Shown: positions 1-6,007 of the stretch, in pieces | Layout: the number at the start of each line of letters is the position of its first letter | Numbering within the stretch: position 1 is the stretch's first letter | Origin: an uncultured Bacillota bacterium | GTDB lineage: Bacteria; Sysuimicrobiota; Sysuimicrobiia; Sysuimicrobiales; Segetimicrobiaceae | NCBI GenBank assembly: GCA_963804645.1 | Contig: CAWDRG010000009.1 | Location: forward strand, 1,024,001-1,088,000 | Reading direction: 5' to 3' | Length of the DNA: 64,000 nt | The notes under the pieces: model-generated | Seen by the model: only the letters and a program-made list of their open reading frames with translations | Told to the model about the DNA's origin: nothing | Database searches by the model: none | Made by a program: the position numbers and the translations under genes

Positions 1-1346
1 GTACCGGCAGCGAGACCGCTACTCGTCGTTTGGCAAAAGCGTTCGTCGGCGGCGACCGGAAAATTCATATATGTTGCGAGCGCGGGGACCTGCACCAGTT
101 CGTTCGTGTCGAGCCAATGCCCGGGGGCCCACAGCATGCGCCGGTCGGGGTCGAAGCGCGAATACGGAAACCCGGGTCGTGCATACACCGCATCGTCGTA
201 CAAAACCAGCCAGCGCGGATCGAACGCCCGGTCCGCCAGCGTGCTGAATGGCGCGTACGTGAGTGTAGATACGTCCCAGAGCGACGCGGCGTACCGCTCG
301 AGACCTTCTCCCAACGCACTGCGAATCGCATCCTCGCGGGTGGCACCCTTGCCCTCGCCATTGAAACTCGGACGCAGACCGTGTCCGTCGCGGTACGGAG
401 CCATGACGACGCTGCTGCAGGACGGCACGACCGCTGTGTCGGTCCCGTCGCCGTCGTAGAGCAGCACTCGCCGCACGAGCCCGGCCCGAGGATCGGCGAG
501 CAGCCGCAGCTCTTCCGGGACGTGCAGCGAGTGCGTCAATGACGCGAGTTTTGACGGACCCACTATTGCTGCGGCCCCGCCGCACGTCTCGCACCAGGGC
601 ATCGGCAGCACCGAGTGCAGCGTAGAGATTTCGTCGCCTTGGATGACGACGCATCCGTAGGCCGCGACATCGGGATAGCGAAGCGCAAGGAGCACGTTCT
701 CGGCGGCGACGCGAGCTGCAACGGGCTCCTCCAGGGCTCGCGGGTGGCTTGCGCCAGAGATTGAGTCGAACAGGCGCAGTCTGCAGCAGTTCCAGCAGGC
801 CGTGTGCATCGGGATAGCCAAAGGCCCGTAGAAGACTTCCGAGCCGTGCCTCCAGATTGGCATCGATCGAAGGCGGGCTTGGTGGATGTGTCGCACCAGC
901 CGCAGCGCATCATGAACATCCAGACCGGAAAGGTCGATGATTGCGAACGCGCTGTCCGCCGCCGTTTCGCGCGCGCGGATCCCGAACCCAACCAGGTGAT
1001 CCATCACGCGGGTCGTCAACGCGGTCTGCCGGGGCGCCCACACAGAGGCTTCGTCATCGGACGACGCGGTATGCGCGGTCTGAGCCGAGGATATCCGGAC
1101 GATATCGGCGTCCTCGAGTTGACGACCAAGAACGTCAACCCAGTCACGTGAGTAAGGAAGATCCTCCCCGCGTATCTCGCCTGCGTTCCCGAGCGCGGGG
1201 AGGACCTCGAACATAAGACCATGCGCTGAATCCTTGTTTAGGCGAAAACACCCCTTCGACGACGAAACAATCGCACCGTCGCGCGTCGCCGCTATCCGGA
1301 CGTTGGGCGCGAGGCGAATGCGATTGCTATCCGCCTCTGGCGCCAC
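1..1346 (-). CDS. Fused RRE-like + E1/ocin-ThiF-like + YcaO cyclodehydratase (TOMM/LAP C-D fusion); 3' end runs off the window
   Basis: Hand-translated minus frame, stop-free from 1394 to 1 and not in the ORF track. Motifs: FYGPLAIPMHTACWNCCRLR, HSVLPMPWCETCGG, DPRAGLVRRV, GEGKGATREDAIRSALGEGLERYAAS, FDPDRRMLW, VPALATY, QTTSSGLAAG. The start is uncertain; the first in-frame GTG is at 1346. Confidence 0.9.
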   Translation of the reverse strand, partial: MAPEADSNRIRLAPNVRIAATRDGAIVSSSKGCFRLNKDSAHGLMFEVLPALGNAGEIRGEDLPYSRDWVDVLGRQLEDADIVRISSAQTAHTASSDDEASVWAPRQTALTTRVMDHLVGFGIRARETAADSAFAIIDLSGLDVHDALRLVRHIHQARLRSMPIWRHGSEVFYGPLAIPMHTACWNCCRLRLFDSISGASHPRALEEPVAARVAAENVLLALRYPDVAAYGCVVIQGDEISTLHSVLPMPWCETCGGAAAIVGPSKLASLTHSLHVPEELRLLADPRAGLVRRVLLYDGDGTDTAVVPSCSSVVMAPYRDGHGLRPSFNGEGKGATREDAIRSALGEGLERYAASLWDVSTLTYAPFSTLADRAFDPRWLVLYDDAVYARPGFPYSRFDPDRRMLWAPGHWLDTNELVQVPALATYMNFPVAADERFCQTTSSGLAAG

Positions 1347-1530
1347 CGGCAGCGGGACCGGTTGCTCCGGCGCTTCCTGCCTCGCTGAGCACTTTCAGGG
1401 CTTTCATGAAGGTCTCGCCACACGGCTCGCATTGATTGCATTCCATGCACTGGAAGCGCCTTGCGATGATCGAACTGATGGTCGCCAGGGAGTCGACGAT
1501 CTTTTCCATATCGTACTGCTTTCCCGGCAT
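1327..1530 (-). CDS. 67-aa Cys-repeat peptide, candidate RiPP precursor
   Basis: GGAGG RBS 6 nt before ATG; CMECNQCEPC tract; Gly/Ala/Ser/Thr-rich tail; co-oriented with and directly upstream of the YcaO gene. Confidence 0.7.
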   Translation of the reverse strand: MPGKQYDMEKIVDSLATISSIIARRFQCMECNQCEPCGETFMKALKVLSEAGSAGATGPAAGGARGG

Positions 1531-1633
1531 AGGTCGCCTCCATTGGGCATGATAGTCGTCCTCGAGCGCGAAACGCTAGCTGAGCCTTTGGGACACCGAG
1601 AGGAGCACTACGAGACAAGATCGTTACACAGCC

Positions 1634-1664: not shown

Positions 1665-1992
1665 CTCAAAAGGTCAATTACGCGGTCGCGAACGATAGCA
1701 GGAACCTGCCTGATAACTATCCCGTCGCGGCGACGAAGATATCTCGCCCCTGTTCGAACCGCCGATCGGGCCCGGATAGGTGATCTTAGCGACCGTGTTT
1801 CGGCCCCGTTCGGCGGTCGGCGTCGTCGTCATCGGATTGATCCGCGAGCGGCGCGAGGCCGGTATCTCGCCGTCGGCACTCAGGCAGGAATCGTGATCGG
1901 CGCGGCCCAAGGGGATGCGCGCGGCGGTCGACCGGGTGCGGATGGGCGCCGGTCGCGCGTCGATGCGAATGATCCCTACGCGGGGTGTGCGT

Positions 1993-3384
1993 GTGGCCGA
2001 GGTCGACAGATACGATGCGATCGTAATCGGATCCGGGCAGGGCGGAAACCCGCTCGCGGAAGCGTTGGCCGGAGCCGGCCGCCGGGTCGCCATGATTGAA
2101 CGGAAGCACGTCGGTGGCACCTGCGTCAACGAGGGCTGCACCCCGACGAAGACGATGGTGGCGAGCGCCCGGATCGCGTATCTCGCCCGCCGCGCGTCGG
2201 ACTACGGGGTGCGCGCCGGCACCGTGACGGTGGACATGACGGCGGTGCGGCGCCGCAAGCGCAGGATCGTCAACCTCTGGCGGAGCGGGAGCGAGCGCGG
2301 CCTGAAGAAGGCGGCGGGCCTGGACCTGATCCGGGGGGAGGCGCGGTTTGAGGGGCCGCGGCGCGTCGCGGTGGCCCTCTCGCGCGGCGGCACGCGCGAG
2401 CTGGTCGCGGACCAGATCTTCATCAACGCCGGCGCGCGGCCGGCGCGGCCCGCGGTCCCGGGGCTCGAGACCGTCCCGGTGCTCGATTCGACGTCGATCA
2501 TGGAGCTCGGGGTCCTTCCGCGGCACCTGCTGGTGCTCGGCGGCGGCTACATCGGCTTGGAGTTCGGGCAGATGTTCCGGCGATTCGGCAGTGCGGTGAC
2601 GATCGTCCACCGCCACGGGCGCCTGCTCGATCGGGAAGACCCGGACATCGCCGACGCGATCGAGGGCGTGCTGCGCCAGGACAAGGTGAAGCTCGTGCTG
2701 GACGCCCAGACGCTGCGGGCGGCGCCGGGGCCGGGGCGGACGATCCGCCTGACCGTGCGCGCGTCAGGGGCCCGGTCGCCGCGCACGCTCACCGGCTCCC
2801 ACCTCCTCGCGGCCACCGGGCGCGTGCCCAACACCGATCGTCTCAACGCGGCGGCCGCCGGCGTCGAGCTCGATGCCCGCGGCTTCGTTCGCGTCAACGA
2901 GCGTCTCGAAACGACCGCGCCCAGCGTGTACGCGCTCGGCGACATCAAAGGCGGGCCGGCGTTCACCCACATCTCGTACGACGACTTCCGCATTCTCGAG
3001 ACCAATCTGCTGCGGGGCGGGCAGGCGACGACCCGCGACCGATTCGTGCCGTATACCGTGTTCACGGACCCCGAACTGGGCCGGGTCGGTCTCGGCGAGA
3101 CCGAGGCGCGCGCGCAGGGGCGCGCGATCCGGGTGTTTTCGATGCCGATGCGGCGGGTCGCGCGCGCGGTGGAGATGGACGAACCGCGGGGGACCATGAA
3201 GGTGGTCGTGGACGCGCGGTCCGGGCAGATTCTGGGGTGCGCGGTCCTCGGGATCTTCGGCGGCGAGCTGATGTCCCTGATCGAGGTCGCGATGATGGGC
3301 GGCCTGCCGTATACGGCGCTGCGGGATGCGACGCTCGCCCATCCGACGCTCTCGGAGGCCTTCAACAACCTGTTCGACCGCTAG
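1993..3384 (+). CDS. Class I pyridine nucleotide-disulfide oxidoreductase (RclA/MerA-like, no C-terminal Cys-Cys)
   Basis: GSGQGG FAD motif, [13 protein letters not shown] redox disulfide, GGGYIGLE, C-terminal [15 protein letters not shown] start at 1993. Confidence 0.9.
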
Positions 3385-3501: not shown

Positions 3502-4353
3502 GTGGCTCGACATCTCGTGTGCCTCACGTTCGACTTCGACGCGATCTCGAACTGGATCCACCGCGGCGCCGTGACCCCGACCCAGATTTCGCGCGGGGAG
3601 TTCGGGCTGGTCGGCGCCGCGCGCATCCTCGAGTTGATGCGGGCGCGGGGGATCGCCACCACGTGGTTCATTCCGGGGCATACGCTGGACACGTATCCGG
3701 AGATGTGCCGGCGCGTGCACGCGGAGGGCCACGAGATCGGCAACCACGGCTACCTGCACGAGCCGCCGGCGACGCTCACGGCCGCCGAGGAAGAGGCGGT
3801 GCTGGTCCGCGGCAACGAGGCGATCCGGCGCATCACGGGCGCCGATCCCATCGGCTATCGGTCGCCGGCGTGGGACCTGAGCCCGCACACGGTGCCGCTG
3901 CTGCTCAAGTACGGATTCACGTACGACAGCAGCATGATGGCGCACGACTGCCACCCCTACCGGGCTCGGCAGGGCGACGAGTTCGCTCCAGACCGGCCGG
4001 TGCGGTGGGGCACCCCCACGACGCTCGTCGAGATGCCGATCGCCTGGTCCACGGACGACTTCCCGCACTTCGAATACGCGCGCCGGGGGGATACGGTGCT
4101 GCCGGGACTCCGCCGCGGTGGCGACGTGCTGGAGAACTGGGTCGACGACTTCCGGTACATGGTCCAGCACGAAGAATGGGGCGTGCTGACATACACGTTT
4201 CATCCCCAGGTCTCGGGGCGGGGCCACCGGATGCTGGTGCTGGAGCGGCTGATTGATGCGCTCCGGGAGTTGGGCGCCACGTTCGTCCGGATGGACGCCG
4301 CGGTCGCGGAATTCGTCCGGTGGGAAGCCCGGCGGCGGGCCGGCTCGGCGTAG
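3502..4353 (+). CDS. Polysaccharide deacetylase family (CE4, PuuE/HpPgdA-like)
   Basis: LTFDFD, HEIGNHGYLHE, GYRSPAW, YDSS, TFHP; GGAGG RBS. Confidence 0.9.
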   Translation: MARHLVCLTFDFDAISNWIHRGAVTPTQISRGEFGLVGAARILELMRARGIATTWFIPGHTLDTYPEMCRRVHAEGHEIGNHGYLHEPPATLTAAEEEAVLVRGNEAIRRITGADPIGYRSPAWDLSPHTVPLLLKYGFTYDSSMMAHDCHPYRARQGDEFAPDRPVRWGTPTTLVEMPIAWSTDDFPHFEYARRGDTVLPGLRRGGDVLENWVDDFRYMVQHEEWGVLTYTFHPQVSGRGHRMLVLERLIDALRELGATFVRMDAAVAEFVRWEARRRAGSA

Positions 4354-4379: not shown

Positions 4380-5441
4380 CTACCGCGCTCTGGTGATTTT
4401 GCGCAGCCCCCTGGGGTGGTCGGGATCGTGGCCGCGCGCGCGAGCGAGATGGTAGGCCAGCAGCTGCATCGGGATCGCGTACACGTGGGGGCTGAGCCGT
4501 TCGTCCGGCGTCGCGGGGACCTCGATGGGCAGGGCGGCCAAGCGGAGGACCGTCCGGTCTGACGAGCAGATGACGGTCTGCGCGCGCCGGTCCTTGAGCC
4601 GCGCGGCGAGCGAGGCGAGACCCGCCAGCACCCGCCCGGGCGGGGCGGCGATCAGCACCGGAAACCCACGGGCGATCACCGCGATCGGTCCGTGGAGGAG
4701 ATCCACCGCGGAGATCGGCTCGGCCGCCACGTAGCAGGTCTCTTTGAGCTTGAGGGCGGCTTCGCGCGCCGTCGCATAGTTGTAGCCGCGCGAGGTGACC
4801 ACGCACTCGACGATGCGGCGCCACCGGCCCGCGACGGTCCGCACCCGGTCGTTGGCGCCGAGCGCTGCCGCGAGAAGACGCGGCAGGTCGCGGTGGGCGC
4901 GGAGCAGGCGGCGATTGGCGGTCGCCTCGGCGATCAGCAGGCTGAGCGCGGTCAGCTGCGCCGTGTAGGTCTTGGTGGCCGCCACGCTGCGCTCGGGACC
5001 GGCGTGGAGGAGCACCGTGTCGTGGGCCGCGCGTGCGAGGGGCGAGTCCTCCCGGTTGGTCACGGCGATCGTGCGGGCTCCGCAGGCGCGCCCGGCCTCG
5101 AGGAACTCCACGATGTCCGGGGATGCCCCGGACTGCGACAGGCCAATGACGAGAGCCCGGCGCAGCCGCAGGCGCGCGCGGTACACGGTGAGGACTGACG
5201 GGGCGGCGAGCGAGACAGGAACGCCCCACACCGTTTCAATGAGATAGCGGCCGTAGAGTGCCGCGTTGTCGGAAGTGCCGCGCGCGGCGAGCACGACCAG
5301 ATCCGGCGGCGTGCGGCGGAGCCGCCTACCGAGCGCGGCGATCGCGGTCCCCTCCAGGTCGCAGACGCGCGCCACCGCGTCCGGCTGCTCGGCAATCTCT
5401 TGCCGCATCCACCGGCCGGGATCCGTGCGGGACGGCGGCAT
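4380..5441 (-). CDS. Double-SIS-domain sugar-phosphate isomerase/deaminase (GlmS C-terminal-like)
   Basis: EIAEQP, ARGTSDNA, SQSGASPD, VAATKTY, EAALKLKE, HGP, PRGLRKIT; no glutaminase domain. Confidence 0.9.
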   Translation of the reverse strand: MPPSRTDPGRWMRQEIAEQPDAVARVCDLEGTAIAALGRRLRRTPPDLVVLAARGTSDNAALYGRYLIETVWGVPVSLAAPSVLTVYRARLRLRRALVIGLSQSGASPDIVEFLEAGRACGARTIAVTNREDSPLARAAHDTVLLHAGPERSVAATKTYTAQLTALSLLIAEATANRRLLRAHRDLPRLLAAALGANDRVRTVAGRWRRIVECVVTSRGYNYATAREAALKLKETCYVAAEPISAVDLLHGPIAVIARGFPVLIAAPPGRVLAGLASLAARLKDRRAQTVICSSDRTVLRLAALPIEVPATPDERLSPHVYAIPMQLLAYHLARARGHDPDHPRGLRKITRAR

Positions 5442-5446
5442 GCGGC

Positions 5447-6007
5447 CTACAGGAGACGCGCCGCGACGTCGTCGGCGGTGAGTTCGATCAGCGCGCCGCC
5501 CGTCGTCCCATTGCCCATCGTGCAGTTGACGACGAGAGTCGCGCCCACGCGCTCGATCCCCGCGGACTCGTGCACATGCCCGCAGGTCAGCACGCGCGGG
5601 TGCGCGCGCTGGACCAGGTCCAGGACGTGCCGCGTGCCGATCCGGTGCCCCGAGCGCGCGAGGTCGAGCGTGCCGGCCGGTGGTTCGTGCACGACGAGGA
5701 CGTCGCACGCCGACGTGACGCGCGGGCCGCCGAACGACACGCCGTCGATGACGACGGGATCGGGGCCCGCCAATCCCCCGCGCCGGGCGATCTCCGCCGC
5801 CGCGTGGAGGCCGTCGACGTTGCCCGCCACCGCCAGCACGGGCACCGAAAACGCGCCGAGCAGGTCGAGCGCGTCCTCGCCGTGGCCCGTGTCGGTGAGA
5901 TCGCCCGGCAGCAGCACCACCGCGGGGGCGTGCTCGGCGACGAGCTCGCGCACGCGCGCGATGCGCTCGGGACGGCCGTGCAGGTCGGCGCACGCGAGGA
6001 TTCGCAC
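5447..6007 (-). CDS. Calcineurin-like metallophosphoesterase
   Basis: C-terminal part of ORF 5447..7207: ADLHG, GDLT, GNVD, HEPP, CGHVHE; GTG at 6007. Confidence 0.85.
   Translation of the reverse strand: MRILACADLHGRPERIARVRELVAEHAPAVVLLPGDLTDTGHGEDALDLLGAFSVPVLAVAGNVDGLHAAAEIARRGGLAGPDPVVIDGVSFGGPRVTSACDVLVVHEPPAGTLDLARSGHRIGTRHVLDLVQRAHPRVLTCGHVHESAGIERVGATLVVNCTMGNGTTGGALIELTADDVAARLL

Follow-up and report, generated by a model that had tools for sequence, protein, structure and literature searches.

Which substrate does a YcaO-type enzyme act upon, and what does it make of it, when its only constant companion is one small gene? The question is raised by the left edge of a stretch of 64,000 nucleotides (nt) from an uncultured Bacillota bacterium, placed by GTDB in the Segetimicrobiaceae of the phylum Sysuimicrobiota (assembly GCA_963804645.1, contig CAWDRG010000009.1, positions 1,024,001 to 1,088,000 of the forward strand; G000:C9:1024001-1088000 in our numbering). 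We call this whole stretch the window, and we fetched the DNA on its left to complete the gene that crosses its edge. A preliminary description made from the sequence of the window took this gene for the first enzyme of a thiazole/oxazole-modified peptide cluster with its other genes further left. Here, we show that the genes on the left are an unrelated oxidase and an amidase, and that the sole conserved partner of the enzyme lies rightwards, inside the window, at 1327-1530. It encodes a peptide of 67 amino acids (aa) around a nearly invariant cysteine motif. The two genes form a self-contained insertion, and we find it reasonably probable that the enzyme carries out ATP-dependent cyclodehydration of the core Cys/Thr residues to azolines, on a small, conserved and apparently unexported peptide.

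An intact enzyme with three predicted domains

The minus strand has a stop-free frame of 464 codons from position 1394 to position 1, within which the list of open reading frames (ORFs) gives an ORF at 3-1346 that starts with GTG, encodes 448 aa and runs open off the left edge. All the strings quoted from this frame in the preliminary description (IRLAPNVRIAATRDGAIVSSSKGCFRL, GPLAIPMHTACWNCCRLR, HSVLPMPWCETCGG, DPRAGLVRRV, GKGATREDAIRSALGEGLERY and TSSGLAAG) are found in it; by codon count from position 1346, the codon of G332 opens at 353, that of Y352 closes at 291 and those of T441-G448 cover 26-3. Frame and motifs lie far beyond chance. Left of the window the frame goes on for 247 further codons (741 nt) to a stop at G000:C9:1023259. 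The full enzyme is thus intact and has 695 aa; its gene spans L002:17259-19346 on the minus strand, i.e. window -741 to 1346, with codons 1-448 inside the window at 1-1346. The frame is therefore as real as first described. It was not hidden, since the gene seemed missed by the ORF track because it runs off the window edge, and a protein 99% identical to the enzyme (P0003, 651 aa) is already public. That entry begins at Met45 (ATG at window 1214) and drops residues 1-44 (window 1212-1346), which carry conserved beta-strands of the predicted N-terminal domain. Because these residues are conserved in 28 homologues, we hold that translation really starts from the GTG at 1346, and we correct the annotation of P0003, whose shortened start removes the strands.

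The in-window part alone matches the Pfam YcaO family PF02624 (E 1.2e-25, 91 bits), and the full enzyme reaches 209.6 bits (gathering threshold 25.7) over residues 332-655, which cover profile positions 2-320 of 325. It scores 222.6 bits against TIGR03604 (SagD-type cyclodehydratase), only just over the curated cut-off of 219.25. Of the YcaO domain, which extends to about residue 685, the first part (residues 274-448) occupies 1-527 on the minus strand and carries GEGKG at 330-334, ExxERY at 347-352 and SSGLAAG at 442-448. The second acidic motif, YELIERDA, follows at residues 460-467, just past the window edge. In an alignment of 28 family sequences, YELIERDA and GEGKG are invariant, as are E347, E350, R351 and Y352, S442, G444 and A446, and the two CxxC pairs C184/C187 and C252/C255; the enzyme keeps every one of these columns. 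The YcaO motifs and profile match predicted from the window were thus confirmed, and none of the signs of a dead remnant (no YcaO match, an early stop, loss of the second ExxERD) was found.

The fold points to the same family. An AlphaFold model of the whole enzyme, built from the 28 homologues, has a predicted local distance difference test score (pLDDT) of 86.7 and a predicted template modelling score (pTM) of 0.87. Foldseek ranks LynD, TruD and MusD at the top over the full length (E 4e-35 to 1e-28), and VIA-align superposes model residues 47-694 on LynD with Z 35.4 and a root-mean-square deviation (rmsd) of 4.2 over 548 residues, followed by MusD (Z 32.1) and TruD (Z 30.8). The YcaO half also resembles McbD and archaeal YcaO proteins (VIA-align Z 32-34). 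The best sequence matches in the PDB belong to the same LynD/TruD/MusD group (E 5e-36 to 1e-34, 17-22% identity), with MusD (7u58) first. For the E1/ThiF-like domain (residues ~97-262; window 561-1058, minus strand; C184/C187 at 786-797 and C252/C255 at 582-593) the evidence comes from the alignment of this region to TruD 174-227 and from the resemblance of residues ~40-262 to MccB, ThiF, MoeB and UBA5 (Z 11-12).

The weakest part of the preliminary description was an N-terminal recognition element of the kind that binds precursors of peptides that are synthesised ribosomally and modified post-translationally (RiPPs), named the RiPP recognition element (RRE). The rigid superposition of the whole model left the first ~46 residues uncovered, and we therefore folded residues 1-101 alone (13 orthologues, pLDDT 74.6). 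Compared with 48,161 chains without a Foldseek pre-filter, this model has the PbtF RRE as its top match (Z 9.7, rmsd 2.7, 80 of 86 residues). The next RRE-type matches are TbiB1 (8.2), the MccB clamp (7.4), lasso B1 (7.3), McbB (6.9), PqqD (6.6) and LynD 6-95 (5.0). Foldseek again placed the PbtF RRE first, but with E 0.068. An RRE-like leader-binding domain is hence predicted at residues ~5-90 (window 1077-1334, minus strand), with four beta-strands between residues 8 and 36 and helices at 38-55 and 67-79. The models and profile scores bear out a fusion of RRE, E1-like and YcaO domains of the LynD/TruD/MusD type, in which the RRE is recognised at the level of fold, and the predicted structure puts the enzyme with the fused azoline-forming cyclodehydratases.

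The peptide gene upstream of the enzyme

Directly upstream, on the same strand, lies the gene for the 67-aa peptide (MPGKQYDMEKIVDSLATISSIIARRFQCMECNQCEPCGETFMKALKVLSEAGSAGATGPAAGGARGG; window 1327-1530), our candidate precursor or substrate, whose last 20 nt overlap the GTG start of the enzyme. Its core motif CMECNQCEPCG spans codons 28-38 (1417-1449, minus strand) and holds C28, C31, C34 and C37. A Shine-Dalgarno sequence, GGAGG at 1537-1541, stands 6 nt ahead of the ATG, and GGAG-containing stretches were also seen by eye ahead of the 14 orthologous peptide ORFs described below. Further upstream, at 1634-1662 on the same strand, there is a match to the sigma-70 consensus (TTGACC, 17-nt spacer, CACAAT), the one site found in a scan that gives 0.2 in shuffled sequences. 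Immediately after the peptide gene no significant RNA hairpin or attenuator was found (z = -1.27); a terminator-like site at 1285-1272 was discarded, as its 5-bp stem is no more frequent than chance would have it.

The link between peptide and enzyme is very constant. A scan of one genome per species yielded 79 enzyme loci. At all 14 full-length or near-full-length orthologous loci (L007-L018, L020 and L021), tblastn finds a homologue of the peptide directly upstream of the enzyme and on the same strand (E 1e-13 to 1e-20), so that, window included, the peptide is conserved at this place in 15 of 15 loci. The 14 orthologous loci belong to Thermoleophilia, Solirubrobacterales, Acidimicrobiaceae, Jatrophihabitans, Paraburkholderia, other Burkholderiales and Rhodanobacteraceae. 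The homologous ORFs have 59-75 aa and end at, or overlap, the start of the enzyme gene. When all ORFs of the 15 loci are clustered against each other, nothing else recurs besides antisense shadows of the enzyme gene. In two of the loci the enzyme gene is broken, into two ORF pieces at L014:6106-8026 and five at L020:5998-8050, with the peptide ORF intact; these frames from metagenome-assembled genomes are either pseudogenes or the result of long-read indel errors.

The peptide ORF has the marks of a coding sequence under purifying selection. The ratio of nonsynonymous to synonymous polymorphism (pN/pS) averages 0.30 over the 105 pairs among 15 copies, the variable columns fall 33/18/43 of 46 by codon position, and its frame is the sole one of six that is stop-free in all 15 copies. 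A profile search of a collection of 5.8 billion proteins returned 144 clusters at 90% identity. Among the 120 of these listed, none has a Pfam domain, and all are named 'hypothetical protein' bar one that bears the JGI label 'predicted aldo/keto reductase-like oxidoreductase'. An exhaustive search of 1.84 billion representatives with a hidden Markov model (HMM) of the peptide gave 21 hits (clusters at 50% identity), of which at least two are false positives: P0253 and P0257, a repeat protein and a C2H2 zinc-finger protein, which we rejected as members. The family is thus compact, since the exhaustive search yields just 21 matches, two of them false. The peptide matches no family in NCBIfam (E <= 0.01; including heterocycloanthracin, NHLP and Nif11) or Pfam (E <= 1), and none of the PADLOC defence models. 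The enzyme family itself comprises about 100 clusters at 90% identity, mostly metagenomic and 45-63% identical to the enzyme. Its farther relatives have a recognisable ThiF domain and go under the name 'TOMM precursor leader peptide-binding protein', where TOMM stands for thiazole/oxazole-modified microcin.

Family peptides share one layout: an N-terminal segment of ~27 residues, the 11-residue core [C/T]MECNQCEPCG, a follower, and a variable C-terminal tail of 2-24 residues, rich in Gly, Ala, Arg and Glu and without Cys. The C..C..CG pattern is kept in 124 of 128 unique peptides (the exceptions are one C31S, two C37G and one G38S), and little or no variation is seen at M29, E30, N32, P36, F41, M42, L45 and G52. 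Among the 124 anchored peptides, position 28 is Cys in 110, Thr in 14 and nothing else. Since the single variant of C31 is Ser, positions 28 and 31 vary only among residues that can be cyclised.

Structure prediction says little on the peptide. The ESM Atlas model is a helical hairpin of low confidence (pLDDT 0.55) whose structural matches are generic helical hairpins, and a search of the Atlas for look-alikes gave no feature match. For the complex of enzyme and peptide, predictions scored 0.41, 0.00 and 0.21, with the mark at 0.32; lacking controls, they speak neither for nor against binding. We considered whether the C-terminal Gly-Gly of the window peptide might serve the E1 domain as a ThiS/MoaD-like tail, and rejected this idea, the tail being unconserved in the other 14 peptides. 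A metagenomic fragment of 168 aa (P0255) carries the peptide core and follower (residues 29-50) in frame with the N-terminus of the enzyme (residues 4-152); it is either a natural fusion, and then a Rosetta-stone hint, or a sequencing or frameshift artefact.

The chemistry of the pair

What might the enzyme do to the peptide? Azoline formation, the reading we prefer, would proceed as follows. The first gene of the cassette encodes the peptide; the second, translationally coupled to it, encodes the enzyme with its RRE, its E1-like domain holding a putative zinc tetrad and its YcaO domain. The RRE would dock the N-terminal segment of the peptide. The YcaO domain would use ATP to activate the backbone amide preceding each core Cys and Cys/Thr28: the side chain would attack the preceding carbonyl, and the resulting hemiorthoamide would be phosphorylated or adenylated on its way to the azoline. 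Three or four thiazoline or methyloxazoline rings would be the yield. These would presumably stay unoxidised azolines because the genome encodes no dehydrogenase: the SagB-type FMN dehydrogenase model TIGR03605 has no match at E <= 0.001 in the whole genome (96.77% complete), and the 14 other cassettes have no such gene in their flanks. The product would be a small modified protein, which probably remains in the cell since the cassette brings neither a protease nor an exporter along.

A sister clade of enzymes is informative in this respect. These enzymes, 33-38% identical to that of the window, occur in Pseudoalteromonas, Shewanella, Undibacterium, Marinomonas, Endozoicomonas and other genera (loci within L022-L046; for example L032:3705-8727 in Pseudoalteromonas aurantia). 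They share with the window enzyme the N-terminal strand motif and a PHPIA C-terminus, and they too have their precursor directly upstream. They differ in their length of ~800 aa, in a recognisable ThiF domain (TIGR03882 54.7 bits, over the cut-off of 36.9), in their larger precursors and in a third gene. The upstream ORF, present in 23 of 26 loci (the other three have no upstream DNA), encodes 129-511 aa with 18-131 Cys in Cys-Xaa-Xaa repeats. Downstream, 25 of 26 loci have a gene like thiazolinyl imide reductase (TIGR01761 155.8 bits, under the cut-off of 188.8), whereas the next gene downstream of the window enzyme is an oxidase of the DAO family and the best genome hits to TIGR01761, at 41.7 and 20.1 bits, lie away from the cassette. 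In a quick tree of 31 rows, from which L014 and L020 were excluded for their broken frames, L057 for an internal stop, and ten sister loci as redundant, one branch (Shimodaira-Hasegawa-like approximate likelihood ratio test 98) splits 13 small-peptide enzymes from 16 repeat-precursor enzymes. The precursors of the two clades align by hhalign over 17 Cys-core columns only (probability 70%), and the first Cys block of some sister precursors, such as PPCNECSCGPC in L045, resembles CMECNQCEPCG. The sister precursor matched nothing in NCBIfam, and literature searches turned up no description of it. That a thiazoline-reductase-like gene adjoins the sister enzymes in 25 of 26 loci is what one would expect of thiazoline makers, and by homology this supports the same chemistry for the window enzyme. 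The three-gene system of the sister clade may make polythiazolidine proteins.

A number of points weigh against azoline formation on this peptide. We infer this chemistry for the enzyme family from fold, HMM scores and linkage, and hold it to be rather probable than certain. Of the profiles proposed in the preliminary description, PF02624 and TIGR03604 are passed and TIGR03882 ('TOMM precursor leader peptide-binding protein') is not, with 27.2 bits against a cut-off of 36.9 and a match limited to residues 162-207. Azoline-forming TOMM cyclodehydratases have a Pro-rich C-terminus with a PxPxP motif. Our enzyme ends in NPHPIA; P691, H692, P693 and A695 do not vary in any of the 28 aligned sequences, so that its pattern is PxPxA (PHPIA) and not PxPxP. 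The structural alignment reaches the C-termini of LynD and McbD; the C-terminal 147 aa have no match among PDB sequences. No conserved protease, exporter, immunity gene or dehydrogenase is found at the cassette loci, and hhalign detects no relation between the leaders of one clade and those of the other. The peptide itself, judged from its alignment, is unlike a classical RiPP precursor, in that the core is nearly invariant and both flanks are conserved; its conserved body fits a small folded protein as well as a leader-core peptide. The patterns M29-x-C31-x-x-C34 and C34-x-P-C37-G resemble what we take to be metal-binding motifs, and the cysteines could be metal ligands rather than substrates. 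The window peptide has Ala23, where 118 of 124 family members have Phe. Finally, an RNA-library run yields a single 211-nt contig with one mismatch, over window 1358-1568 (most of the peptide ORF and 38 nt of leader), a weak hint that the peptide gene is transcribed, at a depth of 2.6 and with DNA carry-over possible. The contigs come without ends or strand, and none from this library covers the enzyme gene or the flanks, which is uninformative on expression.

The same pair might carry out another YcaO chemistry, namely thioamidation of the backbone, formation of an amidine or ATP-dependent cleavage of the peptide. YcaO enzymes share one mechanism of amide activation that allows several outcomes. 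The top PDB sequence match, MusD, comes from an entry titled with ATP-dependent peptidase activity, thioamide-forming archaeal YcaO proteins are among those that match the YcaO half, and a core so nearly invariant hints at a single, precise modification and not at many. Yet the genome has no match to TfuA (PF07812), and the enzyme, which passes the cut-off of TIGR03604, gives 78.4 bits with the thioamidation model TIGR03266, whose cut-off is 365. The reductase-like gene linked to the sister enzymes and the exchange of positions 28 and 31 among Cys, Thr and Ser alone also argue for ring formation. So does the domain fusion, as RRE and E1-like partners are given as a hallmark of azoline-forming enzymes in the available text of Cox 2015 (PMC4603692). 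We consider these other chemistries unlikely.

Might the small protein not be a substrate at all? It could be a metal-binding subunit (Zn, Cu or Fe-S), a chaperone or a regulator of an enzyme whose true substrate is encoded elsewhere. Conservation extends over the whole body of 52 residues and beyond the Cys motif, the CxxCxxCxxC, MxCxxC and CxPCG patterns presumably resemble metal sites, the low-confidence Atlas model is a helical hairpin, and some neighbours are related to metals or oxidants (the RclA/MerA-like gene of the window, a cation-efflux protein at L017, a haem peroxidase at L012 and a DyP peroxidase at L013). But these neighbours vary from locus to locus, Thr is a poor metal ligand and holds position 28 in 14 of 124 peptides, and the 15 loci share no other candidate for a substrate gene close to the enzyme. 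Moreover, the enzyme has a predicted RRE fold, whose known role is to bind precursor peptides, and the upstream ORFs of the sister clade are plainly substrate-like Cys repeats. We regard a non-substrate partner as distinctly unlikely, and azoline formation on the peptide as the better account.

Insertion, neighbours and relatives of the cassette

The cassette is a self-contained two-gene insertion of ~2.7 kb, acquired horizontally, between two divergent genes of housekeeping type. The insert runs from about window -830 to +1860 by junction alignment, its in-window part being 1-1861, and has a GC content of 63.3% against 71.8% in the flanks. In three genomes of the same genus (G070, G067 and G069) the oxidase gene on the left and the RclA/MerA-like gene on the right lie on one contig, 73, 223 and 187 nt apart, compared with ~2.8 kb in the genome of the window; these three carry the empty site. 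The other three genomes of the genus are uninformative, with flanks on separate contigs or poorly matching. A DNA search with cassette and flanks found the intervening 2,766 nt in no genome besides that of the window. At E <= 1e-30 the enzyme is found in none of the 6 other genomes of the genus and none of 22 genomes of the family, and among 94 genomes of the phylum there are two weak hits only (28-30% identity). In the window genome both the YcaO gene and the cassette are single-copy. We found no convincing terminal repeats or target-site duplication at the ends of the insert. The stretch is contained in sequencing runs labelled peat metagenome (word shares 0.86, 0.70 and 0.48), which also cover it; since the assembly may have been made from one of these runs, the coverage is not independent support.

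A DNA contig of 237 nt in one run (X2) joins window positions 911 and 1719 (L004 3150-3958) and skips 807 nt, i.e. the peptide gene, the first ~145 enzyme codons and some of the sequence upstream. Either the population contains a deletion variant or the contig was chimerically assembled.

Could the cassette be a recent passenger, silent or non-functional in this genome? Its absence from all 6 other genomes of the genus, its foreign composition, the broken enzyme frames at L014 and L020, the skipping contig of X2 and the rare Ala23 might all be cited to this effect. However, both ORFs are intact, every residue invariant in the family is kept, the peptide gene is preceded by a strong Shine-Dalgarno sequence and by a site resembling a promoter, and one RNA-library contig falls upon it; we think a dead passenger very unlikely. 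A larger TOMM cluster with dehydrogenase, protease and exporter to the left, as the domain architecture of the C-D fusion type had suggested, is hardly credible given that the 18 kb leftwards encode an amine oxidase, an amidase, an aminotransferase, an S9 peptidase and solute-binding proteins, that these genes are not repeated at the other 14 cassettes save for one amidase in L017, that the oxidase gene adjoins the right-flank gene in three relatives, and that the SagB model is unmatched in the genome.

The immediate left neighbours, on the same strand as the enzyme, are an N-methyltryptophan-oxidase-like gene of the DAO family (NF008425, 500.8 bits) and then the amidase; the aminotransferase, S9 peptidase and solute-binding proteins stand further off. 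On the right, and divergent from the cassette, 1915-3384 on the plus strand encodes a pyridine-nucleotide-disulfide oxidoreductase whose best models ('FAD-containing oxidoreductase', RclA and MerA) are all below their cut-offs; this RclA/MerA-like gene is native to the genus and lies outside the insertion. It is followed by two ordinary neighbours, a protein of the polysaccharide-deacetylase family (3502-4353, plus strand) and one with two SIS domains (4380-5993, minus strand); in the long ORF of the latter, the Arg/Ala-rich N-terminal extension is probably untranslated.

A Pfam scan of 96 flanking ORFs at the 14 other loci shows heterogeneous neighbours, with Peptidase_S8 in one weak match (L015). 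Among them are an animal-type haem peroxidase (L012:8391-10325), a DyP peroxidase (L013:9680-11047), two NADPH-FMN reductases (L008:2655-3806 and L018:6985-7587) and a cation-efflux protein (L017:4215-5177); in the sister clade there is an FMP-type haem-binding protein (L032:2440-3561). Such metal- or oxidant-related genes are scattered and differ between loci, and their presence could be due to chance.

How does the cassette compare with known systems? With LynD, TruD, PatD and MusD the enzyme has in common the single polypeptide of RRE, E1-like and YcaO domains, the CxxC pairs of the zinc tetrad and the adjacent precursor gene, but it is ~80-90 residues shorter and only 17-22% identical. Unlike cyanobactin loci, that of the window has no PatA/PatG-type proteases, oxidase or macrocyclisation genes (no PatA/PatG-type protease or macrocyclase was found in L002), and its peptide has one near-invariant internal core within conserved segments where cyanobactin precursors have hypervariable cassettes between recognition sequences. 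Heterocycloanthracin and sonorensin are Bacillus bacteriocins with strain-variable numbers of repeats and a SagB dehydrogenase, whereas our peptide has four fixed units and matches no NCBIfam precursor model. The likeness lies in the modification by a cyclodehydratase of precursors with repeated Cys-Xaa-Xaa, as described in the accessible text of Haft 2009 (PMC2674419).

Bufferins offer at most a possible analogy of function. Their precursors carry signal peptides, and no signal peptide is evident in the window peptide; their enzyme is a multinuclear non-haem iron-dependent oxidase (MNIO), unrelated to YcaO. What would be alike, with these copper-chelating RiPPs as PMC12452194 describes them, is a conserved Cys-bearing ribosomal peptide whose cysteines become heterocycles and whose role is physiological rather than that of an antibiotic.

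The cassette thus falls outside the cyanobactin (no PatA/PatG), azole TOMM (no SagB), thioamide (no TfuA) and reductase-linked (no reductase) pathways. Our literature searches found no description of the pair of peptide and enzyme, although the supplementary tables of Cox 2015 could list members of the clade. The available text of that paper (PMC4603692) sets out no class that matches the cassette, and that of Russell 2021 (PMC8442711) deals with standalone YcaO proteins only.

The YcaO enzyme class is itself familiar. To our knowledge, nearly all YcaO cyclodehydratases studied so far belong to multi-gene clusters and make exported antibiotics or toxins with hypervariable cores. What differs here is the association of such an enzyme with a single peptide of near-invariant core across Actinomycetota, Pseudomonadota and other lineages, in a minimal mobile format of two genes without dehydrogenase, protease or exporter, and with a peptide that stands outside Pfam and NCBIfam. 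Since only two genes are needed and cultured carriers exist (Paraburkholderia dipogonis, L015, and Luteibacter sp. Sphag1AF, L018), both chemistry and phenotype can be tested directly.

The near-invariant core and conserved flanks argue, as far as an alignment can, for a conserved cellular function and not for an antibiotic caught in an arms race. A role as buffer of metals or oxidants is plausible, with the pattern that we take to resemble MxCxxC metal sites and the scattered neighbours as hints. One might go further and speculate, although we find it rather doubtful in this full form, that the product is an unexported and untrimmed protein whose [C/T]MECNQCEPCG loop is a string of thiazolines, and that it buffers metals or oxidants inside the cell or works there much like a cofactor. 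It would then be the YcaO counterpart of bufferins, and together with the sister clade it would represent a class of ribosomal polyazoline or polythiazolidine products of the size of proteins, whose minimal cassettes are spread by horizontal transfer.

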